Below are positions 1,321 to 33,610 of a stretch of 64,000 bases of DNA, piece by piece. Every line of letters begins with the position of its first letter. The first letter of the stretch is position 1. Under the pieces are notes generated by a model that had not been told where the DNA came from, did no database searches, and saw only the letters and a list, made by a program, of their open reading frames with translations. Made by a program: the position numbers and the translations under genes. Source of the DNA: Clostridia bacterium (lineage in GTDB: Bacteria; Bacillota; Clostridia; DUPQ01); NCBI GenBank assembly GCA_016935835.1, contig JAFGQE010000024.1, forward strand, positions 12,338-76,337, read 5' to 3'.

Positions 1321-1737
1321 ATGGATAAAAAGACAATTGCCTTCGTATGCGTCCACAACTCCTGCCGGAGCCAGATAGCGGAAGGTTGGGCCGGTCATCT
1401 CGGTGGTGATGTCATCGTTCCATATTCAGCCGGAACGGAAAAATACCACGAGGTGAAGCCCTTTGCAGTTAAGGTTATGAAAGAGGCGGGGGTTGATATC
1501 TCCTCCCATCATCCAAAGCTCCTTGATGACATTCCTTTCAAGGTAGACATTCTTATAAGCATGGGATGCGGTGTTTCATGCCCCTTTGTTTTATGCGATT
1601 ATGAAGAAGACTGGGGTATCGAGGATCCTTCCGGCGGGTCGTTGGATGATTTTCGAAGAACCCGTGATATTCTCAGGACCAAAGTGGAAAAACTCATAGC
1701 CGACATCAAGGCCGGCAAATATGAGAAACATTCCTAA
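1321..1737 (+). CDS. arsC: arsenate reductase, low-molecular-weight phosphatase (LMW-PTP) / thioredoxin-coupled type
   Basis: CX5R P-loop 'CVHNSCRSQ' at the N-terminus and an LMW-PTP fold signature. About 138 aa. Confidence 0.75.
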   Translation: MDKKTIAFVCVHNSCRSQIAEGWAGHLGGDVIVPYSAGTEKYHEVKPFAVKVMKEAGVDISSHHPKLLDDIPFKVDILISMGCGVSCPFVLCDYEEDWGIEDPSGGSLDDFRRTRDILRTKVEKLIADIKAGKYEKHS

Positions 1738-2840
1738 ACAGGCATTGCCTCCGCTGTTTTAATTTTAAACGCAGCCTTGTATTCCTCCATTATGGTCGCA
1801 ATCAGCTCTTTTACAGATATTATCCCTTTGGCTCTGTATGCATTTGATCCGGCAAAGGCAAACCCTTTTGACATTCTCCCGTCCTTTGCATTTGTAAGGG
1901 CCAATGCTATGCAATATGGACTCTTCTCCAATGCACAGGTCTTTATACAGTGGAAAGGGCATTTGACCGGCTGCCGCAGTCCTTTTTGAATGTCTGATAT
2001 AAACATGTTTTTGATTGCTCTTCCCGGAAGCCCCACCGGACTGTCGATAATTACGATATCCTCTTTCTTGCAGTCTATATATGTGTTCTTGAATTCTATG
2101 CCGGCATCACACTCGTTGGTTGTAACAAACCTGGTCCCCATCTGAACTCCCGATGCCCCCATATCAAGGAATCTTTTAACGTCCCCTCCGTTGTAGATTC
2201 CACCCGCCGCGATGACAGGTATCTTTTTATTTTGCCTGTCTTCAAAAAACCTTAGCTTATCGATAACATCCCTGACTATGTTTTCGAGGGAGAATTCCTC
2301 TTTGTCGAGCTGCTCCCTTGAAAATCCCAGATGACCCCCGGCTTTTGGTCCCTCAACCACAAATGCATCCGGGGTGTAATTGTATTTTTCAATCCATCTT
2401 TTTGATATCAGGCTTGCAGCCCTTCCCGATGAAACTATCGGAACAAGCTTTGTCTTTTTGCTTCCCCCGAGTAATTCAGGAAGGGCAAGGGGAAGCCCGG
2501 CTCCGGAAAATATTATGTCAATGCCTTCTTCAATGGCCGTCTTCGCCATGTCGATGAAATCTGACAGCGCAGTCATGATGTTTACCCCCAGTATCCCGTT
2601 GCTCTTTTGCCTGGCGCTCCTGATTTCGTTCCTCAGCGCGACAATGTTCGCCTCTTTTATATTCATTCCGCCTTTGTCTTTCAAGGTCATTCCTATTCCC
2701 GCCGCCGCAATGACACCTATTCCTCCCTCGTTCGCAACTGATGAGGCAAGCGACGACAGGGATATCCCCACACCCATGCCTCCTTGGATTATCGGTATCC
2801 GCGCCGTGAGGTTTCCTATTCTGAGTTTCTTTATATTCAT
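1734..2840 (-). CDS. nitronate monooxygenase / FabK-like flavin mononucleotide (FMN) oxidoreductase (NPD family)
   Basis: 'IPIIQGGMGVGIS...GGIGVIAAAG' TIM-barrel flavoprotein motif. An RBS AGGGAGA precedes the ATG at 2840. Confidence 0.7.
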   Translation of the reverse strand: MNIKKLRIGNLTARIPIIQGGMGVGISLSSLASSVANEGGIGVIAAAGIGMTLKDKGGMNIKEANIVALRNEIRSARQKSNGILGVNIMTALSDFIDMAKTAIEEGIDIIFSGAGLPLALPELLGGSKKTKLVPIVSSGRAASLISKRWIEKYNYTPDAFVVEGPKAGGHLGFSREQLDKEEFSLENIVRDVIDKLRFFEDRQNKKIPVIAAGGIYNGGDVKRFLDMGASGVQMGTRFVTTNECDAGIEFKNTYIDCKKEDIVIIDSPVGLPGRAIKNMFISDIQKGLRQPVKCPFHCIKTCALEKSPYCIALALTNAKDGRMSKGFAFAGSNAYRAKGIISVKELIATIMEEYKAAFKIKTAEAMPV

Positions 2841-3017
2841 GATTTCTCCCTTGCCGAAATGCATTTGCCAGGATTTGGTTTAGTCGATATTATCACCGCA
2901 GCCGGATCAAGGCAATCATCATTGCGGGTGATGAAAGGGGTGATTGGCATTCACCGCAGGCCGTGCTTTTTTCCCCTAGTTAATATAAAATGTATTCAGG
3001 CGGACAGGAAGGTTTAA

Positions 3018-3770: not shown

Positions 3771-3836
3771 ATGTTTGATTTTCAATTGGTTTATAATATA
3801 AAATACAAATAAAATATAACTACCGGAGGTTTTACC

Positions 3837-8761: not shown

Positions 8762-10594
8762 TCAGTTTGCCGCGCCATGCCTGCCGCGCACGGTGTACGT
8801 GGTATGGAGCAACTCATGGGACGTGTGCCCGAGCGGTTTTCCGAGGAATTCCTCATATATTTTAACTATGTCAGGATTCTCGTGGGATTTTCTGATTTTC
8901 TTTCCCTCATCCTCCCGGTACAATGCAGCCATTCGCTTTTCCTTTGCCTTCTCATCCCTGGGCCTTGGCTGACCACCACCGTTTATGCAGCCCCCCGGGC
9001 ATCCCATTACTTCTATGAATAGATACAGGCTCTCTCCATCCTTGATTTCATTCATAAGAATCCCCGCCCCCACAAGCCCGCTCGTTACGGCTACTTTCAC
9101 GGCGACTCCATTGAGGAAAGCCCATTCCTCCTTTGCATTCTCAATCACAAGCTCCGCGGTCTTGATTCTTTCGAAGCCCGCGATAGGGGCAACATGCAAC
9201 TTGTCAAAAGGCAATTGCCTTCCGGTGACCAGCTCATAGACAGTTCTGAGCGCCGCCTCCATGACGCCCCCTGTTGACCCGAATATATCTGCCGCTCCTG
9301 AAGACAGCCCAAGGGGACTGTCAAATCCGCCATCGGCGAGTTTCTCAAAATTTATTCCGGCTTCCTTGATCATCCTTGCCAGTTCCCTTGTCGTCAGTAC
9401 GGCGTCGACATTCGCAACTCCTCCGTTGACCATTTCAGGTCTGGTTATCTCATACTTTTTTGCAGTGCACGGCATTATGGATACCACATACATATCCTCC
9501 GGCCTTACCCCGATTTTTTCGGCGAAATATGATTTTGCAAGGGCGCCCAGCATCATATGGGGGGACTTGCAGGATGAAACGTTGCCGAGCTGTCCGGGAT
9601 AGTAATGCTCTATGAATTTTATCCAGCCCGGGCTGCAGCTTGTTATCATTGGAATTGTTGCATTGACATTCCTGTGAAGTCCCAGTTCATCAATTTTTTT
9701 TGCAGAAATCGCTCCCTTTTGATAAAGCATCCCGACAATTCTATTTAGGAACTCAGTTCCTTCCTCGATTATAGTAAGGTCGGCCGCGAAGTTTGTGTCG
9801 AATACATGGTCAAAACCCATATCCCTTAGGGCGGAGGCCATTTTCCCCGTGACAAGCGTACCCGCCTCATACCCGAATTCTTCACCCAGCGCCGCCCGTA
9901 TCGCGGGGGCGGTCTGAACAACCACCGTCTTAGCGGGATTTGCCAGCGCAGCCCAGACATCCTGGGTCGAGTCCTTTTCATGAAGTGCGTTCACAGGGCA
10001 TACAACAGTACACTGTCCGCAGTTTGTGCACGCCGCTTGCCCAAGCAGGGTTTTGCCCCCGGCGCTTATAGCCGATGCGAATCCCCTGTCCTGTGCGTTA
10101 AGAATTCCCACCCCCTGCACCTCATTGCATATCGTGACGCATCTCCTGCAAAGAATGCACTTCGCGGCATCCCTTACTATGGAAGGACTGCTTTCATCTA
10201 TATATTCCTTCGATTTCTCTCCTTCATAGCTGCTTTCATCGGCCTGTATTATTTCACCGACAGCCTGCAATTCGCAGCTCTTGTTCCTTGAGCAGCTAAG
10301 ACAGTCCTTGGGGTGGTCGGAAAGGATGAGCTCATACATTATCTTCCTTGATTCGCGAACCCTTTCAGTGTTCGTCCTAACCACCATGCCCTCCGATGCA
10401 GGTGTTACGCATGAGGCCTGCAGAGTCCTGGCTCCCTCGACTTCAACCATGCATATTCTGCACGAACCGGTTTTATGAATATTTTCAAGATGACATAAGG
10501 TCGGTATTTTGACATTAAGTTTCCTGGCGGCATCCAGGATAGTAGCCCCTTCCGGGACGCTTACAGATTTTCCGTTGACAGTCAGATTTATCAT
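8762..10594 (-). CDS. hydA: [FeFe]-hydrogenase-like catalytic subunit (HydA / StnC-like) with N-terminal [2Fe-2S], His-ligated and 2x[4Fe-4S] ferredoxin domains
   Basis: H-domain motifs L2 'MPCTAKKYE' and L3 'EVMGCPGGCINGGGQP' are present. L1 reads 'TSCSPGW' instead of TSCCPxW. The N-terminus has CxxC clusters and 'HPKDCLSCSRNKSC'. ATG at 10594 with an RBS GGAAGG. Confidence 0.8.
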   Translation of the reverse strand: MINLTVNGKSVSVPEGATILDAARKLNVKIPTLCHLENIHKTGSCRICMVEVEGARTLQASCVTPASEGMVVRTNTERVRESRKIMYELILSDHPKDCLSCSRNKSCELQAVGEIIQADESSYEGEKSKEYIDESSPSIVRDAAKCILCRRCVTICNEVQGVGILNAQDRGFASAISAGGKTLLGQAACTNCGQCTVVCPVNALHEKDSTQDVWAALANPAKTVVVQTAPAIRAALGEEFGYEAGTLVTGKMASALRDMGFDHVFDTNFAADLTIIEEGTEFLNRIVGMLYQKGAISAKKIDELGLHRNVNATIPMITSCSPGWIKFIEHYYPGQLGNVSSCKSPHMMLGALAKSYFAEKIGVRPEDMYVVSIMPCTAKKYEITRPEMVNGGVANVDAVLTTRELARMIKEAGINFEKLADGGFDSPLGLSSGAADIFGSTGGVMEAALRTVYELVTGRQLPFDKLHVAPIAGFERIKTAELVIENAKEEWAFLNGVAVKVAVTSGLVGAGILMNEIKDGESLYLFIEVMGCPGGCINGGGQPRPRDEKAKEKRMAALYREDEGKKIRKSHENPDIVKIYEEFLGKPLGHTSHELLHTTYTVRGRHGAAN

Positions 10595-10602
10595 ATCTTC
10601 GC

Positions 10603-13600
10603 CTAACCTTCCCGCCTGTCGCAACGCAGGCACCTCATTGCTTCGGCAGTAGCATTCAGCTTGTGAAATCCCAGTGAAACCTCATTGAAATTACCTTTCC
10701 TGTCCTTTGGATCAAGCCATTTCATCTCGAATCTCTCATGCTCCACCAATTCCGATTCATCGAAATTCATCGGTATTTCAATTTCCCTGCCCTTGTTCAG
10801 AATACCGGTGCCGCCTAGGAATCTATCTATTGCGGATGCGGCTTTCTTTCCATCGGCTATGGCAGTTATTACGGCATCGGATCCCCTGACCACGTCGCCT
10901 CCGGCAAAAATTCCTTCCATGGTTGTCATCTGTGTATCCCTGTCGACGACAAATGTCCCCCATTTCGTTATCTGAACCTCTTCCTTGCTCACAAACGGCA
11001 AATCCGAGTACTGGCTGACCGCCGGAATTATCATGTCGGCTTCTATCCTTACGGTTTCCCCGCTGCATTCCCTCGGAATCTTTCTTCCTCCCGAATCAAA
11101 TCCACGCAGTTCCATTTTTTGGCATTCGACAAATTCAATCTTTCCGTTTCCCCTGAATGCCACCGGCGACATCAACTGGTGAATCCTGACGCCCTCTTCC
11201 ATTGCGTCATTTATTTCCCTGGCATCCGCCGGCATGTCTTTTTTAGTTCTTCTGTACAATATATGAACTTCATCGGCTCCAAGCCTGAGCGCAACCCTTG
11301 CCGCGTCAATCGCCGTGTTGCCACCTCCGATGACAATGACCCTGCCGCTGACTTCAGTAAGCCTGCCAAGATGAACATCCTTCAAAAAGTCGAGCCCATG
11401 GTATACGCCGGGCATGTTTTCCCCTTCAATCCCGATTTCCTTTGAAACCTGTGCACCGGTCGCAATATATATCGAATCATGCCTGTCCTTTATTTCTTTG
11501 AAGGTTATATTCTTTCCCACTTCAGTTTCCGTCAGTATTTTTATGCCTATTTGCTTTAGTGTATTTATTTCCTTTTGCAGTATCTCCTTGGGCAGCCTGT
11601 ACTCGGGTATTGCATAGGCCAGCATCCCGCCCGCTATTTTCTCGGCTTCGTAGACCGTCACATCATACCCAAGCCTGCCAAGATAATATGCGCATGTAAG
11701 TCCCGAAGGCCCGGCTCCGATTATACCGACCGATTTATCCCTTTTTCTTGAAATGATATCAGAGAACGGGCTAGTGTCCTTCATGGCCTCATCGGCCGCA
11801 TATCTCTTCAAATCCATGATTGCAATCGGATCATCCAGCTGAGCCCTTCTGCACCTGCTTTCACAAGGATGCGTGCAAACCCTTCCGCAAACCGACGGGA
11901 ACGGATTCTCCCTTCGGATGAGATTATATGCGTCCTTCACCCTTCCTGCCGCGATAAGCGCTATATAACCCGGAACATTGACTCCCGCCGGGCATGCGTT
12001 TTCACACGGGGATATGAAAAGATCAGAACAAACGCCCGCCCTGCAGTATTTGTCCCTGATATGCTCTTCATATTCCTCCCTGAAGTATTTTATTGTGCTC
12101 AATACGGGATTGGGTGCAGTTTGCCCGAGGCCGCACAAGGCTGTGTCCTTTATCGCCTTTCCAAGCTTCTCAAGCTTCTCGATGTCGCCTTCCTTTCCCT
12201 TTCCCTTTGTAATCCTTTCAAGGATTTCCAGCATTCTTTTCGTTCCAAGCCTGCATGCCACGCATTTGCCACATGATTCATCCTGTACGAACTCCATGAA
12301 GAATCTCGCCACATCAACCATGCAGGTGTCCTCATCCATGCATATCAAACCTCCGGACCCCATGATTGCGCCAAGCTCCACCAAGGAGTCATAATCCACC
12401 GGGACATTAAGATGCTCTCCCGTAAGGCATCCGCCGGACGGGCCCCCGGTTTGCGCCACTTTGAATTTCTTGCCTCTTGGTATTCCGCCGCCAACATCAA
12501 AAATGACTTCACCCAGCGTAATTCCCATCGGAACCTCAATTATTCCGGTATTGTTTATATCCCCTGCAAGCGCAAAGACCTTTGTCCCCTTGCTTTTTTC
12601 CGTTCCTATTTGCGAAAACCAGTCCGCCCCGTTGAGTATGATGCTCCTTACGTTTCCAAAGGTCTCCACATTGTTTATTATGGTCGGTTTTCCGAACAGT
12701 CCCTTTTCAGAAGGATACGGCGGCTTTTGCCTCGGTTCCCCCCTCTGCCCTTCAACTGATGCAATCAGGGCGGTTTCCTCGCCGCATACAAAAGCACCCG
12801 CCCCTATTCTTATTTCAATATCAAAGTCAAGGCCTTTTTCAAAGATATTCTTTCCAAGTAAATTCGCTTTTTTTGCCTGCCCAAGGGCATTCTCAAGTCT
12901 CTCGACCGCAAGCGGATATTCAGCCCTGACATACACATATCCCTTGTTCGCACCGATTGCATATGCGGCTATTGCCATTCCTTCTATCAGGCTGTGCGCA
13001 TCCCCTTCCAAAAGACTTCTGTCCATGAATGCACCAGGGTCCCCTTCGTCTGCGTTGCATATGACATATTTTTCATTCCCCGGGCTCTTGTTGGCAAGCT
13101 TCCACTTCAGTCCGGTAGGGAAACCCCCGCCGCCCCTTCCCCTCAGACCGGACCGGGTCATCTCGGAAATAACATCATCGGGGGTCATTTCCGAAAGAAC
13201 TTTGTACAAACCCATGTATCCATCATTCACAACATATTCCTCAAGCGACAGGCAATCAATGCTCCCGCAGTTCTTCAGCACTATCTTCTGCTGGCTTTTG
13301 AAAAAATCTATGTCCTTGATAAATGGAACCGGTTCGCCCGTTTCCTTGTCCTTAATGCAGAATTCCGTTGCTATCCCGCCTTCGATTATGTCCTTGCGCA
13401 CAATTGTTTCCATGTCCTGTGGCCCAAGGTTGCAATAGAAGACATCCCCCGGTTTTACTATCATCGCAGGGCCGATGTTGCATGTTCCCATGCATCCAGT
13501 CAGTTTCAAGTCTATTTTCTTATCCGGGCAAAGTCTGGCCAGCGCCTTTACAAGGGCATCCTTGACCGCCCCGCAGTTCGATGAAATGCATCCGGCGCCC

Positions 13601-13701
13601 GAACATATCAGTATGGTATAGTCATATTGCCTTTGTCTCTCCAGATAGCCCGCCTTTATTTCTTCAAGGTTCTTTCTTCCATTGATTGGTTTTGAACTCA
13701 T
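10603..13701 (-). CDS. hydB: NuoF-like FMN/NAD(H) subunit (HydB-like), fused at the C-terminus to a GltD/NfnB-like FAD/NAD(P)H oxidoreductase domain
   Basis: 1032 aa. The N-terminus is a thioredoxin-like [2Fe-2S] domain, followed by the NuoF motifs ('GRGGGGFPTGLKW', 'ESCGKCVACRLG'). Then come a GltD-type 2x[4Fe-4S] region and an 'IIGAGPSGL' Rossmann fold. RBS AGGAGG. Confidence 0.8.
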   Translation of the reverse strand: MSSKPINGRKNLEEIKAGYLERQRQYDYTILICSGAGCISSNCGAVKDALVKALARLCPDKKIDLKLTGCMGTCNIGPAMIVKPGDVFYCNLGPQDMETIVRKDIIEGGIATEFCIKDKETGEPVPFIKDIDFFKSQQKIVLKNCGSIDCLSLEEYVVNDGYMGLYKVLSEMTPDDVISEMTRSGLRGRGGGGFPTGLKWKLANKSPGNEKYVICNADEGDPGAFMDRSLLEGDAHSLIEGMAIAAYAIGANKGYVYVRAEYPLAVERLENALGQAKKANLLGKNIFEKGLDFDIEIRIGAGAFVCGEETALIASVEGQRGEPRQKPPYPSEKGLFGKPTIINNVETFGNVRSIILNGADWFSQIGTEKSKGTKVFALAGDINNTGIIEVPMGITLGEVIFDVGGGIPRGKKFKVAQTGGPSGGCLTGEHLNVPVDYDSLVELGAIMGSGGLICMDEDTCMVDVARFFMEFVQDESCGKCVACRLGTKRMLEILERITKGKGKEGDIEKLEKLGKAIKDTALCGLGQTAPNPVLSTIKYFREEYEEHIRDKYCRAGVCSDLFISPCENACPAGVNVPGYIALIAAGRVKDAYNLIRRENPFPSVCGRVCTHPCESRCRRAQLDDPIAIMDLKRYAADEAMKDTSPFSDIISRKRDKSVGIIGAGPSGLTCAYYLGRLGYDVTVYEAEKIAGGMLAYAIPEYRLPKEILQKEINTLKQIGIKILTETEVGKNITFKEIKDRHDSIYIATGAQVSKEIGIEGENMPGVYHGLDFLKDVHLGRLTEVSGRVIVIGGGNTAIDAARVALRLGADEVHILYRRTKKDMPADAREINDAMEEGVRIHQLMSPVAFRGNGKIEFVECQKMELRGFDSGGRKIPRECSGETVRIEADMIIPAVSQYSDLPFVSKEEVQITKWGTFVVDRDTQMTTMEGIFAGGDVVRGSDAVITAIADGKKAASAIDRFLGGTGILNKGREIEIPMNFDESELVEHERFEMKWLDPKDRKGNFNEVSLGFHKLNATAEAMRCLRCDRREG

Positions 13702-13713
13702 ACAGCAATCCTC

Positions 13714-14214
13714 CTATTCATACTGCGCAAGGATCTGACGAAGTTTATTCGGATTTACACGTTTATAAACTGTATCGTCTATCGCAATTGCGGGAGCCAG
13801 TCCGCAGGCGCCGATGCATCTCATGACTTCAAGTGAAAAAGTCATGTCCTTGGTCGTTTCCCCTACATCAATCTCCAGCAATTCCTTTATTCTTTCCACT
13901 ATCTTGCTTCCGCCCCTTACATAACAGGCGGTTCCAAGGCAGACTTTTATGGTATGCTTCCCCTTGGGTTGCGTTGAGAACAGGGAATAAAAGGAAACGA
14001 CTCCCTGGATCCTTGACATGGAAAGATTCATCTCGTCCGCTATTGTAATCAAGACGTTTTCCGGCAGGTAGCCAAAGATCGCCTGCGCCATGTGGAGAAT
14101 TTGAATCAGATTGCTTTCCTTTGCCTCATACTTTTCTATGGTTTGCCTAAGAAGTGAAAATTTCTCATTTTCATTGATTTCGCAGCATCCGCACTGCGTC
14201 TCATTGTTTGACAT
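13714..14214 (-). CDS. hydC: NuoE-like thioredoxin-fold [2Fe-2S] subunit (HydC-like)
   Basis: 166 aa with 'CLGTACYVRGG...CIGACGLAP' NuoE cysteine motifs. RBS GGGGGTG. First gene of the three-gene operon. Confidence 0.8.
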   Translation of the reverse strand: MSNNETQCGCCEINENEKFSLLRQTIEKYEAKESNLIQILHMAQAIFGYLPENVLITIADEMNLSMSRIQGVVSFYSLFSTQPKGKHTIKVCLGTACYVRGGSKIVERIKELLEIDVGETTKDMTFSLEVMRCIGACGLAPAIAIDDTVYKRVNPNKLRQILAQYE

Positions 14215-23107: not shown

Positions 23108-25312
23108 TCATTCCAACTCCGGTTCCTTGTCCGTCATTTGAAGCACAAGGGTTCCCCCGCCTGCAAGATCGTCATGATATATCCTTGAGTCAACGAGATG
23201 TTTTCCATTGAACATGGCTGAATCCACATATGGCCTGTCCGGCGAATTGTTCTTCATAATAATCCTAAACTCATCTCCGGTATAATATTTTTGATCAAGG
23301 CTTATGATAATTTCATCAAATATCGGCGAACCTATTTCATATAAAGGCTTTTCATACGCCCCTCCTTTCAAATCAAACAGACCGATGGCAAGAAGTATGC
23401 TCGTACCAGCAGAAAGTCCACAGTCGTCATCCTCACAAAACCCGCATAGCCCCGTTGATGAAAAAAGGGCCTGTCTGACCTTTCTGCTCCATTTTTGGGA
23501 GAGGCCGCACGCACCTGCATGATTGAAAAGCGACACAGTAAACCTTGTGTTTTCATTGCCATAATTAATGAATGCCCTGTCCCTATGCAATTCGGGCTTA
23601 CCGGCATAATAATTCATTTCACCTGCCATTTGAAAGGCATGATTCAACTTATCGATAAAAGCCCGCCTTCCGCCCATCAGCTCAATCAAACCGGGGATAT
23701 CGTGCGGCACATAGAAAGTATATCCCCATCCGTTTCCCTCGCAGAATCCCTTCAATGACAGCGGATCATATGGTTCGATAAAACTTCCATCCTCATTTCT
23801 AGGCCTCATGAACCCCGTGCCTGAATCAAAAAGATTCCTGTAATTCCCTGATCTTTCCAAAAATAGCTCGTGGTCCCCGTATTTGCCCAGGCTTTTTGCA
23901 AGCATGGCAATGCACCAGTGGTCATATGAGTATTCAAGTGTCTGCGCTGCTCCATCACAATGGTATCCCGGTGATTTTCTTTCTCTCTCCGGGATATATC
24001 CTCTTTCTATAAAAAATTCTATTCCTCCGTCCAGGCAGCTGCCGTGCTCATATCCCGACTTGCTCATAAGCCCCCCCGGGAATGCGTTCTTTCTAATGCC
24101 TTCATAGGCAGCCTCTATGTCAAAATTCCGTATTCCCTTCATGTATGCCGAAGAAATAAAAGCACCGGAGTGCGCTGCAATCATTACAAAGGTATAGTTT
24201 CCTCCCGATGGACCCCTGGGTATCAATCCGCCGTTCCTGTACATCTCTACAAGCGACCGGCAGTAATCGTTCTTGATATCGGGGTAAGCAATATCCCATA
24301 GCAGGCCCAGGCTCCAGTGGGCTCCCCAGAATATATCTGCGTTTGATAAAAATTGATGTTCCGGATTTCCGTTTTCATCAATGGGAATCTGCCTGATTAC
24401 AGGCTTGCCGCCGGTCATATCGCAGTATTTTCCGTCTATGTCATTTATGATATGTCCCCCGAAGGAAGTTCTCCATAAATCCGTGTAAAATTTTATTTTT
24501 TCTTGCTCTTTTCCTCCCCTGACCTCTATCCTCCCAAGAAATTTATCCCATTCGATCCTCGACTCGGAAACAACCCTGTCAAAATCCCAGTGGCAGACTT
24601 CGGCCATCATGTTTTTTGCAGCCTGTTCAGCACTTACAAACGACAATGCAGTTTTAACTATGACTTCCCGTGAGTTATGGTCTTCAAAATAAAGTGAAAA
24701 GCAATTTCCTTCCTTTTCAACCATTTCCTTAATTTGAGCGCTGAATTCCATGTGGTAATATATCCTGCATTCCCTCGGTCTTCTTATCGTCGGCGCGTTT
24801 TCCGTAAAGCCTTCAATGGCTGACCCTGAAACCATTTCAAGTTTTCCGGCGCTCATGCTGCTAGGTCCGAGTGTTTTTCCCAGGTCAATCATCAATGCCC
24901 TGCCGTGCCCGGGTTGAAACGTATACCTGTGGATACCAACCCGCTTGGTTGCGGTAAGTTCAGCGGTTATACCACATTCTTCAAGAATAATTTTGTGATA
25001 TCCGGGCCGGACCGACTCCGACTCGTGGGAATAAAAGTACCCGTCTTTGATTCCTTCATTGAATTCACCGCTGAATGGGAGAACCGGTATTGCGCCCAGC
25101 TGCCAGGAATGCATATGTGAAAAACACTTGATTCTTGGAGAGTTATACCTATAGCCCACTCCCCAGGTACCATCGGTATCTGTATCGGGGCTCAGTTGGA
25201 CCATTCCAAAAGGCATGCTTGCGGATTGGAAGAAAACCCACCTTGGATTTGGTTTAGCTGTGTCAATCAGAGGATTTACATAATCATATGGGCTTTTTGA
25301 TTGGCCGGGCAT
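23108..25312 (-). CDS. GH92 alpha-1,2-mannosidase
   Basis: 734 aa. N-terminal 'VNPLIDT...RWVFF...GMVQLSPDT' is diagnostic of GH92. RBS AAAGGAG. Confidence 0.8.
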   Translation of the reverse strand: MPGQSKSPYDYVNPLIDTAKPNPRWVFFQSASMPFGMVQLSPDTDTDGTWGVGYRYNSPRIKCFSHMHSWQLGAIPVLPFSGEFNEGIKDGYFYSHESESVRPGYHKIILEECGITAELTATKRVGIHRYTFQPGHGRALMIDLGKTLGPSSMSAGKLEMVSGSAIEGFTENAPTIRRPRECRIYYHMEFSAQIKEMVEKEGNCFSLYFEDHNSREVIVKTALSFVSAEQAAKNMMAEVCHWDFDRVVSESRIEWDKFLGRIEVRGGKEQEKIKFYTDLWRTSFGGHIINDIDGKYCDMTGGKPVIRQIPIDENGNPEHQFLSNADIFWGAHWSLGLLWDIAYPDIKNDYCRSLVEMYRNGGLIPRGPSGGNYTFVMIAAHSGAFISSAYMKGIRNFDIEAAYEGIRKNAFPGGLMSKSGYEHGSCLDGGIEFFIERGYIPERERKSPGYHCDGAAQTLEYSYDHWCIAMLAKSLGKYGDHELFLERSGNYRNLFDSGTGFMRPRNEDGSFIEPYDPLSLKGFCEGNGWGYTFYVPHDIPGLIELMGGRRAFIDKLNHAFQMAGEMNYYAGKPELHRDRAFINYGNENTRFTVSLFNHAGACGLSQKWSRKVRQALFSSTGLCGFCEDDDCGLSAGTSILLAIGLFDLKGGAYEKPLYEIGSPIFDEIIISLDQKYYTGDEFRIIMKNNSPDRPYVDSAMFNGKHLVDSRIYHDDLAGGGTLVLQMTDKEPELE

Positions 25313-27746: not shown

Positions 27747-27931
27747 TGTTACTGTTCCACCTTTATCGATTTATTATACATAAGCTGGGGTTCATTTTCA
27801 AATCCTCTTTTTATTATCTGGTTATATACCCTGTTAATATTATATGGTATTATTAAGCAAGTCCCCGGAGATTTATTCAATTCGGCAGGATTAATCCGGA
27901 AATGATTATTCTATTGTCTGGAGGTTATGAA

Positions 27932-28504
27932 ATGGCTGAGAGAAGATACCTTACGGTTCCCAATTTTTTGTCGGTGTCAAGGGCGGTGTTCCTGCCTTTG
28001 CTGTATTTATTTGTACTCAACGGAATGGAAACAGCGTTTCTCATCGGATACATTCTATTGGGCTCAACCGATTTCTTCGACGGGCTTATTGCCAGGAGGT
28101 TCAACCAAAAAACCGAGATAGGCAAAGCCCTTGATTCAATCGCAGACCTTTTCTTCTATATTTCATCGGCATATTTTCTTTCCGTCCTTTATCCCGAGTA
28201 TCTGGTCCCGAACACGGTTTTGCTGGTTGTGTTTTTCTCGCTGCTTTTCCTGTCTTTCGTGGTTTCCGGTATATTGTGCAAAAAGCCCATAATGATGCAC
28301 ACAACCCTGCTTCGTCTTGGAGGAGTGCTTGTTTACGCTGCAATCATAATGTCATACTTCATTGATACATCCTGGTTCATAGCACTGGTTCTGATCAATT
28401 ACCTCGTTGCCTTTTCGGAGGAAATCCTGATATTCATAAAGCATGGGGAAGTTGATGCGGATACTACCTCGATATTCAGGATTATCCCAAAGACAAAAAC
28501 CTGA
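27932..28504 (+). CDS. CDP-alcohol phosphatidyltransferase family protein
   Basis: 'DFFDGLIARRFNQKTEIGKALDSIADL' matches D-G-x2-A-R-x8-G-x3-D-x3-D. Confidence 0.7.
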   Translation: MAERRYLTVPNFLSVSRAVFLPLLYLFVLNGMETAFLIGYILLGSTDFFDGLIARRFNQKTEIGKALDSIADLFFYISSAYFLSVLYPEYLVPNTVLLVVFFSLLFLSFVVSGILCKKPIMMHTTLLRLGGVLVYAAIIMSYFIDTSWFIALVLINYLVAFSEEILIFIKHGEVDADTTSIFRIIPKTKT

Positions 28505-28529: not shown

Positions 28530-29723
28530 TTAATCGGCGGCTTTTGCGCTTTTTATTTTTTCCAGGACCTGTATTCCCTTCAAATAGAACCTTGGCACAT
28601 GAAACGGGCCTTTCCAGACAGAGCCCTTTACCGATGAGGCCAGGCTTCCGTCCCTGTGCAGATAACCAAACCACTCGCCGTATTCCTCATCGTTGAACCT
28701 GGCGAACGACCAATCGTGAACCTTTTCATACCATTCGCTGTATTTTGGATTTCCCGTCGCATGAAAGGCCAGCAACAATGCGTATAAAGCCTCATTATGA
28801 GGCCACCACAGCTTCATGTCCCATTCAAGCGCATACGGGGGCTTTCCCTCCGAGTCAACAAAATAAAGCAATCCGCCGAATTCCCTGTCCCATCCAATTT
28901 CAAGCGAATCATCAAGTATGCCAAGCGCCGCTTCCTGTAATTCCATATTATTCTGTTCCATGGCCTCTTCGAGTATGAACCATGCGCTTTCAATGGCATG
29001 GCCCGGATTTACGCATCTCCCTTCAGGAATATGGCTCATATATTCACCAAAAGGCCCGGTATTCTCAAGCAGGCAGCCAAGCTCCGGCTTATAAAAGCTT
29101 TTTGTTATAAGCCTGCATGAATCATTGATTATCCCGGTGTAATCAAATGTGTCGTCAACGGCCCGCATGGTCTTGCAGAGGTCGATTATTATCATTGACG
29201 GGGAATGCGCCTTGAAGTTCATCATTTCACCCTGATATTTAGGGGGTATGGCTCCCGGGACATTGAATGCGTCATATACCGTGCGAAAGGATTTTTTGGC
29301 AAGCTCCAGTGCTTCTTCATCTTCGGTGGCACGGTAATATTCGGCAAACCCCGCGGCCGCAAAAACATCTGAAAACACATATCGCCTCTTCATCACAGGA
29401 TTTCCTTCGCGATTCATCCTGAAGAACATCCTTCCGTCCGAGTCCTTGCAGTAATTTTTCAGAAACCGATAGCCCTGCACTGCGGCCTCAAGGTATTCGT
29501 CATTTTTTCCGAACTCATTGAACAGGCGCGAGAATGTCCAGACTCCCCGCCCCTGCATCCACACCGGCTTATCAGTGCTAATGATCTTCCCGTCCCTGTC
29601 GAGCCATGTCATGTATCCGCCGTATTCATGGTCGATTGCGTTATTAATCCAAAACGGCATGACCTTGTCAAACAAATCCCTTTTATAAAGGGCAGTCAGA
29701 TTCTTTGCATTCAATGTTTTCAT
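28530..29723 (-). CDS. N-acylglucosamine 2-epimerase (AGE) superfamily protein (GlcNAc 2-epimerase / cellobiose- or mannobiose-2-epimerase-like)
   Basis: 397 aa (alpha/alpha)6-barrel signature with 'WMQGRGVW' and 'HNEALYALL'. RBS AGGGGGTG. Confidence 0.65.
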   Translation of the reverse strand: MKTLNAKNLTALYKRDLFDKVMPFWINNAIDHEYGGYMTWLDRDGKIISTDKPVWMQGRGVWTFSRLFNEFGKNDEYLEAAVQGYRFLKNYCKDSDGRMFFRMNREGNPVMKRRYVFSDVFAAAGFAEYYRATEDEEALELAKKSFRTVYDAFNVPGAIPPKYQGEMMNFKAHSPSMIIIDLCKTMRAVDDTFDYTGIINDSCRLITKSFYKPELGCLLENTGPFGEYMSHIPEGRCVNPGHAIESAWFILEEAMEQNNMELQEAALGILDDSLEIGWDREFGGLLYFVDSEGKPPYALEWDMKLWWPHNEALYALLLAFHATGNPKYSEWYEKVHDWSFARFNDEEYGEWFGYLHRDGSLASSVKGSVWKGPFHVPRFYLKGIQVLEKIKSAKAAD

Positions 29724-29824: not shown

Positions 29825-31018
29825 TCAGCCAAGGGCTGCCTTGAATTCCTTTATCAACAGAGGCAGGATTTCCATTGCATCGCCGACTATGCCAAAGGTG
29901 GCAACCTTGAAGATGGGAGCGTCGGGATTCTTGTTAATGGCGACTATGATGTCAGATGATGACATACCCGCAAGATGCTGCACGGCCCCGGAAATTCCAC
30001 AGGCAAAATAAACATGGGGTCCGACGGTCTGCCCCGTCTGTCCGACCTGGTGGTTGTATTCTATCCAGCCCGCATCCACGGTAGCCCTTGATGCCCCCAC
30101 CGCACCGCCCAGCACTTCGGCGAGCTCGTTTATCAATTTGAAATTCTCAGGGGCCCCGAGTCCCCTTCCTCCCGAAACTATGACATCGGCTTCCGCCAGC
30201 GAAACCATTTCAAATATCGTCTTTACAACTTCCCTGACCTTGACCGATGTCTCCCGGGGGATACTGACCTCCGGCCTTGTCACGAGGCCCTTCCTGCTGT
30301 AGTCAGGTTCGAGCGGCTTCATTACCTTGTGCCTGACGGTTGCCATCTGGGGCCTGTGGTTGGGGCATATTATGGTTGCCATCAGATTGCCGCCGAACGC
30401 CGGCCTGGTCTGAAGAAGCTTGCCGTCCGCCGGGTCTATCTCAAGCCTTGTGCAATCCGCAGTCAGGCCTGTGTTTATTCTTGACGCTATCCTTGGTGCA
30501 AGAGATCTTCCATATGTAGTCGCCCCCATAAGAAGTATCTCCGGCCTTCCTTTTCTTATCATCTGCACAAATATGTCCGAATAGGATTCATCATTATACA
30601 CTGCAAGTGACCCGTCCTCGACTGCCATTACTTCATCCGCCCCGTATGCTATGAGCTTTTCACATGCATCCGAAAGCTTGTCGCCGATGACCACCGCAGT
30701 CAGCCGCGTTTTCCTGTCGTCGGCCAGTTTCCTGCCGGCTCCGAGCAATTCGTATGAAATGGGCTCGGGCACCCCGTTCTTTTGTTCTGCAAAAATCCAA
30801 ACCCCGCTGTATTTTGTTATGTCAACAGCATTTGATACCGGCCCTTTTTCATAATCAATCGCATTGAATTTGCATGCGGGCACACATATTCCGCACAAAG
30901 TGCAGTTATCAAGTATCACCGCTTTTCGTCCGTCCATCCTGATTGCCCCGAAAGGGCATGCCTTGACACATAGCCTGCATCCTATGCAGCTTTCTTCGAT
31001 TATTCTTATTCCTGACAT
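29825..31018 (-). CDS. etfA: electron transfer flavoprotein alpha subunit with an N-terminal 2x[4Fe-4S] ferredoxin domain (CarE/FixB-like)
   Basis: N-terminal 'CIGCRLCVKACP...CTLCGICVPACK', then the EtfA fold and FAD-binding C-terminus. RBS GGGAG. Confidence 0.8.
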   Translation of the reverse strand: MSGIRIIEESCIGCRLCVKACPFGAIRMDGRKAVILDNCTLCGICVPACKFNAIDYEKGPVSNAVDITKYSGVWIFAEQKNGVPEPISYELLGAGRKLADDRKTRLTAVVIGDKLSDACEKLIAYGADEVMAVEDGSLAVYNDESYSDIFVQMIRKGRPEILLMGATTYGRSLAPRIASRINTGLTADCTRLEIDPADGKLLQTRPAFGGNLMATIICPNHRPQMATVRHKVMKPLEPDYSRKGLVTRPEVSIPRETSVKVREVVKTIFEMVSLAEADVIVSGGRGLGAPENFKLINELAEVLGGAVGASRATVDAGWIEYNHQVGQTGQTVGPHVYFACGISGAVQHLAGMSSSDIIVAINKNPDAPIFKVATFGIVGDAMEILPLLIKEFKAALG

Positions 31019-31030
31019 TTGTATCTCCCG

Positions 31031-31825
31031 TTATTTGACTGTCATGAATTTCATTGACAGCAATTTTTCCGCCAGCCGTTTTACCTGTTCCCCGGGGGTT
31101 CCCTCTATCATTTCGCTATTGACATCATGCACCGGCACAAATGTTTCAACCACCTGTGTCGGCGAGCCCTTAAGACCGCACAAATCCTTGTCCGCCCCTA
31201 TATCGTCGGCCGTCATTATCCTGATTTCCGCTTTTTTCGCCTTCATCATTCCCTTGAGAGAGGGAAGCCTTGGTTCATTTATTTCCTTGACAACCGTAAT
31301 GACCGCAGGCAGCGGCATCTCTATAACCTCATACCCGTCCTCGGTCATCCGCTGGCACCTTATATAGCCTTTGCGGATTTCCTCTATTTTCCTGACATAT
31401 GTCGTATGGGGTATGCCAAGTTTTTCGGCAAGTCCCGGGCCCACCTGGGCGGTATCCCCGTCCATTGCCTGCTTGCCGCAAATGACCAGGTCGAAATCGC
31501 CGATTTTGTTTATCCCCTTTGACAGGGCATATGAAGTCGCCAATGAATCGGAGCCTGCAAAAGCCCTGTCGCTGAGCAAAACCGCCTCATCTATGCCAAC
31601 CGCAATAGTTTGCCTGAGCAGCTCAGCGACGCTGGGGATTCCCATGCTTATGACCGTGGCCTTGCCGCCTGTCTGTTCCTTGATCCTGACACCTTCCTCA
31701 ACGGCATATGTATCAAAGGGATTTATTATCGCTTCCGCTCCTTCGCGTATTATCGTATTTGTTTCCTTGTTCATCTTTACTTCATTGGTTCCGGGAACCT
31801 GCTTCACGCAGACTATTACATTCAT
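31031..31825 (-). CDS. etfB: electron transfer flavoprotein beta subunit
   Basis: 'MNVIVCVKQVPGT...' EtfB N-terminus. RBS AAAGGAG. Confidence 0.8.
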   Translation of the reverse strand: MNVIVCVKQVPGTNEVKMNKETNTIIREGAEAIINPFDTYAVEEGVRIKEQTGGKATVISMGIPSVAELLRQTIAVGIDEAVLLSDRAFAGSDSLATSYALSKGINKIGDFDLVICGKQAMDGDTAQVGPGLAEKLGIPHTTYVRKIEEIRKGYIRCQRMTEDGYEVIEMPLPAVITVVKEINEPRLPSLKGMMKAKKAEIRIMTADDIGADKDLCGLKGSPTQVVETFVPVHDVNSEMIEGTPGEQVKRLAEKLLSMKFMTVK

Positions 31826-31843
31826 CTTTGCTCCTTTGCCATC

Positions 31844-33001
31844 CTATTTAGAAACCTTCTGGCTCTTAATCAATTCAAGCGCGATTACATTTCTCTGAAT
31901 CTGGTTCGTGCCTTCGTAAATCTGTGTTATCTTGGCGTCCCTCATCATTTTCTCAACGGGATATTCCTTCATGTACCCATATCCGCCCATTACCTGAACG
32001 GCGTCGACCGTGACCTTCATCGCCGTATCTGATGCAAAGACCTTTGATATCGCCGATTCCTTCGATATGGATTTTGCACCGCCGTCAATGTGCCTGCAGG
32101 TCTGATATACAAGGCACCTTGCGGCTTCTATCTGAATAGCCATGTCGGCAAGCATGTGCTGTATGGCCTGGAAGGATGATATCGGTTTGTCAAACTGAAC
32201 GCGCTCGCCGGAGTATTTAAGCGCCTCGTCAAAAGCCCCCTGTGCAATTCCCAGTGCTTGCGAGGCAACGCCCGGCCGTGTCCTGTCCAGCGTCTTCATT
32301 GCAACCAGGAATCCCATTCCTTCCCTTGCAAGAAGATTTTCCCTTGGAATCCTGCAGTCTTCAAAGACAAGCTCGCTGGTTACGGACGCCCTGATTCCCA
32401 TCTTGTTTTCCTTTTTGCCAAAGGAAAACCCAGGCGTGCCCTTTTCAACTATGAATGCGCTGAAGCCCCTTGCACCCTTGGATCTGTCGGTGCACGCTAT
32501 TACTGTATATACCTCGGCCTCTCCCCCGTTTGTTATCCATTGCTTGGTGCCGTTAAGGATATATTCATCCCCGTCGGCCTTTGCAGTTGTTTGTATCCCC
32601 GCGGCATCGCTGCCCGCGTTTGCCTCGGTGAGCCCGAATGCGGCAAGCTTCTTGCCTTGGGCTATGTCGGGCAGATATTTTGCCTTCTGTTCCTCTGTTC
32701 CGAAAAGTATTATCGGGTATGTACCCAGGCCGGTTCCTGCATATGCAAGCGCTATTCCCCCGCAAGCCCGGCTCAACTCCTCTACGACCAGCGCCATTTC
32801 AAAAATTCCACCCCCGAAACCGCCGTACTCCTCAGGTATGTATACTCCGAAAAGGTCGGAGTCGGCAAGCACCTTCACTATATCCCTTGGGAAAATTCCC
32901 TCTTCGTCGTATTTCAATGCCACCGGTTTTATCTTTTCGTCGGCGATCTTTGCAGCCAGGTCTTTTATCATCTGCTGTTCTTCGGTTAAAAAATAATTCA
33001 T
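31844..33001 (-). CDS. bcd: acyl-CoA dehydrogenase (butyryl-CoA dehydrogenase / CarC-like)
   Basis: 385 aa with the acyl-CoA dehydrogenase signatures 'GLTEANAGSD' and 'QWITNG', and a C-terminal catalytic Glu region. RBS GGGAGAG. Confidence 0.8.
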   Translation of the reverse strand: MNYFLTEEQQMIKDLAAKIADEKIKPVALKYDEEGIFPRDIVKVLADSDLFGVYIPEEYGGFGGGIFEMALVVEELSRACGGIALAYAGTGLGTYPIILFGTEEQKAKYLPDIAQGKKLAAFGLTEANAGSDAAGIQTTAKADGDEYILNGTKQWITNGGEAEVYTVIACTDRSKGARGFSAFIVEKGTPGFSFGKKENKMGIRASVTSELVFEDCRIPRENLLAREGMGFLVAMKTLDRTRPGVASQALGIAQGAFDEALKYSGERVQFDKPISSFQAIQHMLADMAIQIEAARCLVYQTCRHIDGGAKSISKESAISKVFASDTAMKVTVDAVQVMGGYGYMKEYPVEKMMRDAKITQIYEGTNQIQRNVIALELIKSQKVSK

Positions 33002-33082
33002 ATGTTCTCTCCCATAAGTTATCCTGCCACGGCAGTATTTATCAGTTGATATTATTATCAGGTAACAACTTAGCTGTTCTAT

Positions 33083-33111
33083 ATTATATATTAGGGAATG
33101 CTGAATAACAA
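33083..33111 (-). promoter_or_regulatory. sigma-A-type promoter of the bcd-etfBA operon (TTGTTA-N17-TATAAT on the minus strand)
   Basis: -35 is the complement of 33106-33111 and -10 is the complement of 33083-33088. The predicted leader to the ATG at 33001 is about 75 nt. Confidence 0.5.
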
Positions 33112-33610
33112 GGGATTTTAGATATTCAGCACCGGCGGCAGCCGGATGGATTGAAAACAGTTAATATTACGGCTTTTCAATCCATTTCCCTAATATCCGG
33201 CGAACCGAATAAGGCAAAGCAAGGTCTTAAGGCCTGTGAAGGCGCAGGGTTTTTACACATATATTAAGAAAAGCCTGTGCCTGAACCGCTTGAAAATGCA
33301 AAGCAAGATTATAGGCAGGGCATTTTCAAGTTATTCGGCAAGCCCTATATCGGGAATGCGAAATAACAAGGGATTTTAGATATTCAGCACCGGCGGCAGC
33401 CGGATGGATTGAAAACATTTGGTATTACGGCTTTTCAATCCATTTCCCTAATATCCGGCGAACCGAATAAGGCAAAGCAAGGTCTTAAGGCCTATGAAGG
33501 TACAGGGCTTTTACATATATATTAAGAAAAGCCCGCGCCTGAACCGATTGAAAATGTTAAGCCGGAATGCAAGCAAAGTATTTTCAAGTTATTCGGCAAG
33601 CCCTATATAA
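33094..33610. repeat. tandem direct repeat: two copies (~33106-33363 and ~33364-33621), period 258 bp, about 90% identical. Each copy has about five internal hairpins / inverted repeats.
   Basis: The copies align directly. The arms are GCTGAATA/TATTCAGC, CCGGC/GCCGG, ATGGATTGAAAA/TTTTCAATCCAT, GGGCTTTT/AAAAGCCC and CTTGAAAATGC/GCATTTTCAAG. Confidence 0.85.

Follow-up and report, generated by a model that had tools for sequence, protein, structure and literature searches.

We propose that a three-gene operon in a 64,000-nucleotide stretch of DNA from a Clostridia bacterium (assembly GCA_016935835.1, contig JAFGQE010000024.1; hereafter the window) encodes a FapR-controlled enoyl-thioester reductase that serves fatty acid synthesis and bifurcates electrons from reduced nicotinamide adenine dinucleotide (NADH) to its substrate and to ferredoxin, a reading to which we assign a probability of roughly 0.5. 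The operon (positions 29825-33001, minus strand) comprises genes for an acyl-CoA dehydrogenase-family flavoprotein (ACAD; 31844-33001, 385 aa), which is the putative enoyl-thioester reductase subunit, for EtfB, the small electron transfer flavoprotein (Etf) subunit with a Pfam ETF domain (31031-31825, 264 aa), and for EtfA, an Etf subunit with a ferredoxin domain at its N-terminus (29825-31018, 397 aa). An earlier annotation made from the DNA letters alone (the original prediction) had reported the gene order ACAD-EtfB-EtfA, and the operon it described is confirmed as real. The three open reading frames (ORFs) are separated by 18 bp (ACAD/etfB) and 12 bp (etfB/etfA), and a ribosome-binding site recognized in the sequence, GGGAGAG (33007-33013, minus strand), stands 5 nt before the ATG at 33001. 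The role in lipid synthesis is proposed on the basis of three observations: the ACAD belongs to a separate clade, the operon carries a FapR-type operator, and relatives of the trio occur in synteny with genes for the type II synthesis of fatty acids (FAS II).

Subunits of the complex

EtfA begins with Fer4 motifs (residues 4-57), followed by an ETF domain (73-252) and an ETF_alpha domain (274-353). Based on its Fer4 Pfam matches and cysteine motifs, the N-terminal region (30848-31009, minus strand) is a 2x[4Fe-4S] ferredoxin-like domain, with the motifs C11xxC14xxC17xxxC21P and C39xxC42xxC45xxxC49K. The original prediction had described two CxxCxxCxxxCP motifs, which is right for the first and requires a minor correction for the second, as this ends in CK. 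All eight cluster cysteines are invariant in 19 relatives. Alignment with CarE of the CarCDE complex of Acetobacterium woodii (PDB 6FAH_A) extends over the full length of the protein including the ferredoxin domain (E = 3.5e-131, 52% identity), in agreement with the earlier description of a ferredoxin-fused, CarE-like EtfA. Two arginines are likewise invariant in the 19 relatives: R205, which aligns with CarE R203, a residue hydrogen-bonded to the bifurcating flavin adenine dinucleotide (FAD), and R311, which aligns with the docking arginine R243 of Clostridioides difficile EtfA, known to form a salt bridge to the dehydrogenase.

The five best PDB matches of EtfB are all bifurcating Etfs, namely CarD (6FAH_B, 235 bits), LctB and the proteins of Acidaminococcus fermentans, Thermotoga maritima, and C. 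difficile; non-bifurcating ETFs score at most 97 bits. We predict that EtfB carries the bifurcating FAD and the NADH site. In their folds, in their closeness to proven bifurcating Etfs and in the possession of both key arginines, EtfA and EtfB conform to the bifurcating (group 2) type, and the sequence evidence makes it highly likely that the trio forms a bifurcating ACAD/Etf complex with a fused ferredoxin domain. By analogy, this domain would relay electrons from the bifurcating FAD to an external ferredoxin. A redox relay role has been demonstrated for the homologous domain of the lactate dehydrogenase-EtfAB complex LctBCD of A. woodii (PDB 7QH2), where the domain proved necessary (PMC9232219), and for the CarE domain an adaptor role has been suggested only (PMC5861303). 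Like the trio, LctBCD has a ferredoxin-fused EtfA; unlike the trio, it has one cluster instead of two, an FAD-oxidase-type Ldh partner and a confurcating direction.

The ferredoxin fusion by itself is a common architecture. Scanning one genome per species gave at least 598 confirmed relative loci with a ferredoxin-fused EtfA, nearly all of the best 80 of these at least 598 relatives cover the N-terminus, and a Fer4 domain is present in 120 of the 120 best EtfA homologue clusters (at least 8000 candidates scored). The partners of fused EtfA proteins fall into four groups: true CarC, true butyryl-CoA dehydrogenase (Bcd; in Anaerovoracaceae), FAD-oxidases of the Lct type, and the ACAD group of the window. 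The fusion is widespread and also found beside true Bcd and Lct-type partners; it is not the hallmark of CarCDE for which the original prediction, which named some FixB proteins besides CarE, had taken it.

The dehydrogenase subunit contains all three ACAD domains in Pfam. Among solved structures it comes nearest to C. difficile Bcd, at 451 bits and 57% identity, compared with 330 bits and 45% identity for CarC. In a neighbour-joining (NJ) tree of an alignment of 67 ACAD sequences, the window protein and its relatives form a group, clade A, that is monophyletic in 100 of 100 bootstraps and stands apart from both Bcd and CarC. Identities within clade A range from 67 to 100% in this alignment and from 61 to 100% overall, with at most 59% to Bcd and at most 45% to CarC, while the Bcd and CarC clades have internal identities of 61-74% and 67-78%, respectively. 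True CarC orthologues score 647 bits to CarC, and true Bcd orthologues (Anaerovoracaceae) score 559 bits to C. difficile Bcd. The window's ACAD is therefore a member of a third clade that is neither Bcd nor CarC. Assignment as CarC was rejected because of the separate clade, the low identity and a score to CarC below that to Bcd, and assignment as a Bcd orthologue because of the separate clade and an identity to Bcd lower than that found inside the Bcd clade. All three subunits miss the curated cut-offs of the NCBIfam equivalogs (AcrC, 477 vs 640; others alike), and these models therefore assign them no function. Across Clostridia families the ACAD is unusually well conserved, at 82-91% identity as against only 64-78% for EtfA, and there are more than 120 ACAD clusters at identities of at least 85%.

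The catalytic residue of the ACAD, Glu363 in the motif YEGT, is conserved, as are the Etf-docking residues E198, E346, and Y347, which correspond to E198, D345, and Y346 at the inter-flavin interface of Bcd. In these residues the trio resembles the Bcd/EtfAB complexes of C. difficile (PDB 5OL2) and A. fermentans, and the same bifurcation mechanism is expected. The signature residues of clade A include W155 and M344, which lie at the interface with the Etf alpha-FAD and replace F155 and T343 of C. difficile Bcd, two residues that contact the Etf FAD. An attempt to read chain-length specificity from pocket residues was given up: W155 and M344 belong to the interface with Etf, away from the substrate pocket, and G82 and A88 cannot be interpreted because MAFFT and HMMER disagree on the alignment of the helix-E region. 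Besides its interface residues and separate clade, the trio differs from Bcd/EtfAB in its extra EtfA ferredoxin domain, its FapR-type operator, and its lack of a crt/hbd/thl context.

Because the mechanistic residues are conserved, the complex is expected to work like Bcd-EtfAB or CarCDE. Following the homologous solved complexes, NADH would reduce the bifurcating FAD, which is bound by EtfB and EtfA. One electron would then travel by way of the swinging FAD in domain II of EtfA to the ACAD subunit and its FAD; after two rounds this subunit would reduce a trans-2-enoyl thioester. The other, low-potential electron would pass through the two [4Fe-4S] clusters of the EtfA N-terminal domain to ferredoxin.

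The likeness to CarCDE had led to the suggestion that the trio reduces phenylacrylyl-CoA compounds such as caffeyl-CoA. This reading is sound as far as the Etf subunits are concerned: among solved structures EtfA and EtfB are nearest to CarE and CarD, and the ACAD/EtfB/EtfA layout, the two-cluster ferredoxin domain and the arginine at the bifurcating FAD are held in common. It does not extend to the dehydrogenase, which is no CarC orthologue, its 45% identity to CarC comparing with 67-78% for true CarC orthologues. Furthermore, an annotated CarC-type locus (L033; loci of relatives were given L numbers and read to ±10 kb, about 20 kb per genome) contains genes for an AMP-ligase, for a CoA-transferase of family III, and for an activase of a dehydratase, none of which appears among the ORFs scanned in the window; nor was any CoA-transferase or ligase of the carA/carB type found among these ORFs. 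The regulation and context of the window trio point to lipid synthesis rather than to caffeate respiration, and we give a CarCDE-type function next to no weight.

A second possibility is that the trio is an ordinary bifurcating Bcd/EtfAB that reduces crotonyl-CoA to form butyrate or short-chain acids, with the crotonase, Hbd, and thiolase genes located elsewhere in the genome. C. difficile Bcd is after all the best solved relative of the ACAD, and stand-alone Bcd-EtfB-EtfA trios with a fused ferredoxin domain and no crt, hbd, or thl neighbours do exist in Anaerovoracaceae. The Anaerovoracaceae with such trios are butyrate producers. The window's ACAD, however, is separated from the Bcd clade at 100% bootstrap support, and the clade-A loci checked, like the 64 kb of the window, contain no gene of the butyrate pathway. 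Pfam searches of 47 sizeable ORFs of the window detected no thiolase, crotonase, or 3-hydroxyacyl-CoA dehydrogenase domain, which extends to the whole 64 kb the earlier remark that butyrate-pathway neighbours are missing. The original prediction had named ferredoxin-fused EtfA genes next to crt, hbd, and thl in close relatives as the observation that would undo its claim to novelty; no such arrangement was seen in the ±10 kb read of the close relatives fetched, all of which have either the same stand-alone trio or a trio linked to FAS II genes. Its view that the enoyl-CoA substrate is open is upheld. Together with the operator and the gene order in other lineages described below, both of which also speak against this reading, these findings make an ordinary butyrate-forming complex unlikely.

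Promoter and predicted FapR operator

A sigma-70-type promoter precedes the ACAD gene (33083-33111, minus strand), with TTGTTA at 33111-33106, a 17-nt spacer and TATAAT at 33088-33083, just as in the original prediction; it matches the consensus at 10 of 12 positions. In the aligned ACAD upstream regions of relatives, a 17-bp palindrome with the consensus TTRTTACCWGNTAATAA lies straight after the -10 box. Its representative in the window is the predicted FapR-type operator TTGTTACCTGATAATAA (33052-33068, minus strand), a 17-bp palindrome that begins 14 nt past the -10 box and, counted from the presumed start of transcription, occupies approximately +8 to +24. The TGATA-N4-TATCA inverted repeat previously pointed out in the leader (33060-33047, minus strand) does exist and overlaps the right half of the TTGTTACCTGATAATAA palindrome, but it is only a fragment of the conserved 17-bp element; we dropped it as a regulatory element in its own right, as only the overlapping 17-mer is kept in relatives.

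Known fap operators are 17-bp inverted repeats located inside or just past the promoter (PMC5052256). The window operator matches fapO of Bacillus subtilis, TTAGTACCTAGTCTTAA (PMC12281612), at 11 of 17 positions by hand count and has the same geometry. With up to two mismatches, the motif is found in the same position 5' of the ACAD gene in 15 other clade-A loci (L002-L007, L009, L010, L015, L017, L025, L086-L088, and L157). The same motif stands 5' of fapR in five loci (L004, L005, L086, L087, and L089); the FapR of L086 passes its equivalog cut-off (249 vs 183 bits), and the proteins of the other four are 73-88% identical to it. A second FapR-type box in the window, ATATAACCAGATAATAA (27811-27827, written on the minus strand; two mismatches to the consensus), is located in the promoter region of the gene for a CDP-alcohol phosphatidyltransferase (27902-28504, plus strand, 200 aa, PF01066), and the orthologous gene in L002 and L003 has a matching box upstream. 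The NCBIfam matches of this protein, to ClsA and PgsA, are weak and both under the cut-off. We predict that it is encoded by a phospholipid-synthesis gene that is a co-regulated member of the regulon and stands outside the enzyme complex.

Chance occurrence of the motif is low. The window has four matches with up to two mismatches, compared with 0.17 in shuffled sequence, and holds three sites because two of the four matches are the two strands of the operator palindrome. The metagenome loci, 797 kb in total and for the most part outside the close clade of Clostridia, gave a single match, which also lies 5' of a clade-A ACAD gene. From the geometry and position of the operator, its sharing with the promoters of fapR and of lipid genes including the phosphatidyltransferase, and the low background, it follows that the operon very probably belongs to the FapR regulon, which controls fatty acid and phospholipid synthesis, through the predicted operator. 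Membership would place the operon under malonyl-CoA/FapR control, as part of a lipid-synthesis regulon. In B. subtilis the fap regulon includes fabI.

The operator shared with fapR and a phospholipid gene is difficult to reconcile with a butyrate-forming Bcd. It also bears on the idea that the trio degrades or scavenges exogenous fatty acids, with an acyl-CoA dehydrogenase feeding electrons to Etf. An ACAD with an Etf partner is typical of beta-oxidation. Against this, there is no other beta-oxidation gene nearby, the Etf is NADH-linked and of the bifurcating type, and ACAD genes of this clade are found inside biosynthetic fab operons. FapR is not known to control lipid degradation. What it does control is lipid synthesis (PMC5052256), and we regard a degradative role as very unlikely.

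A box of the same type was also seen in a fermentation metagenome (L122, approximately 3790-3810), where the trio lies directly 5' of yceD-fapR-plsX-fabH-fabD-fabG-acpP-fabF-rnc on the same strand. The box upstream of this ACAD gene, ATATTACCAGGTCTTAA, matches B. subtilis fapO at 13 of 17 positions by hand count.

Fatty acid synthesis genes and the proposed role

In several Clostridia loci the trio is divergent from, and located beside, a rimO-pgsA-fapR-plsX-fabH-fabD-fabG-acpP-fabF-rnc cluster on the opposite strand. Among the first 89 loci, plsX-fabH-fabD-fabF clusters are confined to those of clade A, and in L056, L073, and L074 the ACAD gene is in or beside the fab operon. The arrangement in L074 is plsX-fabH-ACAD-etfB-etfA-fabG-acpP-fabF with overlapping stop and start codons, and two metagenome-assembled genomes (MAGs) of Firestonebacteria have fabF-rnc-ACAD-etfBA. 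A metagenome scan seeded with a clade-A alignment retrieved 80 loci, 43 of which were informative in having at least 1.5 kb of sequence on each side. The ACAD gene is on the same strand as a FAS II gene and no more than 3.2 kb from it in 57 of the 80 loci and in 35 of the 43 informative ones. At least six arrangements were seen, including plsX-fabH-ACAD-etfB-etfA-fabD-fabG-acpP-fabF-rnc, plsX-ACAD-etfBA-fabG-acpP-fabF, fabF-(rnc)-ACAD-etfBA, and, with no etf genes, plsX-ACAD-fabD-fabG-acpP-fabF (for example in L156, from Syntrophorhabdaceae). All 32 EtfA genes that adjoin metagenome ACAD genes encode both cluster motifs. The 80 loci were picked by similarity to one FAS-embedded ACAD and are not independent samples, which tempers these counts; despite this, because both the arrangements and the lineages vary, the functional link between the ACAD and FAS II appears to be a persistent one. 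Based on this synteny and the operator, the trio is probably linked to lipid synthesis. The embedding of the clade in FAS II operons of other lineages is a further argument against an ordinary Bcd.

Within relatives' fab operons the trio sits between fabH and fabD or fabG. The slot between fabH and fabD is the one that fabK occupies in Clostridia and streptococci. In this placement, and in its predicted FapR-type regulation, the trio resembles the known enoyl-acyl carrier protein (ACP) reductases FabI, FabL, and FabV, which are short-chain dehydrogenase/reductases (SDR), and FabK, a flavin mononucleotide (FMN) TIM-barrel enzyme. Its fold and cofactors are unrelated to theirs, consisting of ACAD and Etf proteins predicted to hold three FAD and two [4Fe-4S] clusters, and its predicted stoichiometry also sets it apart, with 2 NADH consumed per reduction and two ferredoxins reduced. 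A precedent for an ACAD-family enzyme that works reductively in biosynthesis and takes its electrons from ETF is the 2-methyl-branched-chain enoyl-CoA reductase of Ascaris mitochondria, which differs in being eukaryotic, rhodoquinone-linked, and non-bifurcating and in having no ferredoxin domain.

We therefore propose, from the separate clade, the operator, and the synteny, that the complex would carry out the enoyl reduction of fatty acid elongation, acting on enoyl-ACP or possibly on enoyl-CoA. That the trio is an enoyl reductase of fatty acid synthesis is in our estimation close to an even bet. More tentatively, and at somewhat less than even odds, it would represent an unrecognized class of enoyl-ACP reductase that uses 2 NADH per cycle to yield two reduced ferredoxins and is widespread, being FapR-controlled in Clostridia and located inside the fab operon in Syntrophorhabdaceae, Firestonebacteria, and others. 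We found no open-access full-text paper joining ACAD/Etf proteins to FapR or to fab operons. The enoyl-ACP reductases covered by a review from 2022 are FabI, FabK, FabL, FabV, FabL2, FabI2, and FabMG, with no ACAD/Etf type among them. Taken together, the separate ACAD clade, the FapR-type operator, and the linkage to fab operons suggest that a known machine has here taken on a new function, and that enoyl-ACP reductases may include one more class.

A number of points weigh against this role. ACADs normally act on CoA thioesters and not on ACP thioesters, and the closest characterized relative of the window's ACAD, at 57% identity, is a bona fide crotonyl-CoA reductase. The placement in a fab operon that is expected of an enoyl-ACP reductase is found in relatives; in the window the trio is not beside FAS genes, fapR was not found among the annotated ORFs, and the local link is the operator only, with orthology connecting the trio to the fab operons of its relatives. 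In 14 of the 35 FAS-linked informative loci, those of the Syntrophorhabdaceae type, the ACAD gene has no adjoining etf genes. FabI, FabK, FabL, or FabV may be encoded elsewhere in the relatives' genomes, beyond the ±10 kb read. In addition, a FabK-like gene adjoins the trio in L048 (227 bits, cut-off 453), and FabX-like genes occur in the window, at a distance of 27 kb from the trio, and in L103, within the FAS operon; the enzymes may therefore be redundant or share the work in another way. These three genes were the only other candidate reductases returned by searches with a FabI seed and with FabK-like seeds, which covered about 20 kb per genome and are no proof of absence.

Some clade-A ACAD genes (L143, L150, L154-L156, L160, and others) occupy the usual place of fabH between plsX and fabD. 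Neither fabH nor etf genes adjoin them in these metagenome fab operons.

The FabX-like gene of the window (1734-2864, minus strand) encodes a 376-aa protein of the NMO family that scores 262 bits to Helicobacter pylori FabX (PDB 7E1Q), as against 98 bits to the FabK structure that it matches best, and in which all four [4Fe-4S] cysteine ligands of FabX are conserved. It was rejected as a FabK, as it reaches 131 bits against a cut-off of 453 and matches FabX far better. The related gene of L103 (15183-16169) lies between acpP and fabF. Like the complex proposed here, FabX is an Fe-S flavoenzyme acting on acyl-ACP in FAS II; unlike it, FabX belongs to the NMO/FabK family and not to the ACADs, and it acts as a dehydrogenase/isomerase in making unsaturated fatty acids, not as a reductase. 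O2 is the only electron acceptor known for FabX.

FabX is also the model for a different lipid-related role, in which the trio runs in reverse as an acyl-ACP dehydrogenase (ferredoxin-driven confurcation) and supplies trans-2/cis-3 enoyl-ACP for anaerobic synthesis of unsaturated fatty acids, or else makes or edits special primers or acyl chains. Such roles account for the same FapR operator and FAS II synteny as enoyl reduction does, and they draw support from operons in which the ACAD gene takes the place of fabH with no etf genes nearby, from the FabK-like genes beside the trio in L048, and from the confurcating direction of Lct-type Etf complexes (PMC9232219). The energetics are adverse: by our own estimate, oxidation of an acyl thioester (E0' approximately -10 mV) with NAD+ would be unfavourable even if reduced ferredoxin served as co-donor. 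The trio has no evident isomerase function, and the window's FabX-like protein, with its [4Fe-4S] ligands, could itself cover unsaturated fatty acid synthesis. We consider these alternatives rather unlikely and retain enoyl reduction as the preferred reading.

If the trio is indeed an enoyl reductase of fatty acid synthesis, the enzymes known for the last elongation step, FabI, FabK, FabL, and FabV, would be joined by one with a new mechanism, at a step that is a major antibiotic target and whose enzymes are notoriously non-orthologous. Electron bifurcation would then reach from catabolism into core anabolism and make membrane-lipid synthesis partly energy-conserving in strict anaerobes. This would account for the way in which syntrophs, digester Clostridia, and other energy-limited anaerobes recover the large drop in free energy that accompanies enoyl reduction. 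There is a practical consequence as well: these genes are routinely annotated as butyryl-CoA dehydrogenase, and many non-butyrogenic genomes and metagenome bins would have been misflagged as butyrate producers. Should the substrate differ, the FapR-type operator and the fab-operon synteny would still mark a coherent, uncharacterized family of lipid-linked enzymes. In one further envelope-lipid context, that of a Bacillota MAG (L018, 4974-7554), the trio lies directly 3' of kdsA-, kdsC-, and kdsD-like genes for Kdo/lipopolysaccharide synthesis.

Promoter insertion and neighbouring genes

The original prediction had noted that the promoter abuts a tandem repeat, and the -35 box does fall within the final copy of a 258-bp x 2 repeat. 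Tandem Repeats Finder (TRF) reports 2.0 copies with a period of 258 and 90% matches at 33094-33608. With its terminal inverted repeats of 18 nt (TAGGGAATGCTGAATAAC / GTTATTCGGCAAGCCCTA), the repeat is better explained as an insertion of two tandem copies of an element of approximately 256-258 bp (33092-33608, strand not specified) that resembles a miniature inverted-repeat transposable element (MITE). In comparison with the 93%-identical relative L003, which lacks an insertion at this site, approximately 516 bp appear to have been inserted into the ancestral -10 region. The outward end of the element now provides the -35 box, and the FapR-type operator 3' of the insert is intact. A 41-bp fragment of the element is found elsewhere in L003 (11271-11311). 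Searching the upstream region and the repeat against Rfam identified no family, the sole match being sub-threshold and located on the neighbouring terminator.

The window also contains a HydABC-type [FeFe] hydrogenase cluster (8762-14214, minus strand), comprising a 623-aa HydA with an H-cluster domain, an adjacent 1032-aa ORF, and a thioredoxin-like [2Fe-2S] HydC. Reduced ferredoxin together with NADH probably finds a sink in this cluster. If fatty acid synthesis yields reduced ferredoxin as proposed, the hydrogenase would be able to use it.

Directly 3' of etfA, after a 101-bp gap with no predicted terminator, is an N-acylglucosamine 2-epimerase-family gene (28530-29723, minus strand). Beyond it (23108-25312, minus strand) are genes for a GH92 mannosidase and a major facilitator superfamily (MFS) transporter.

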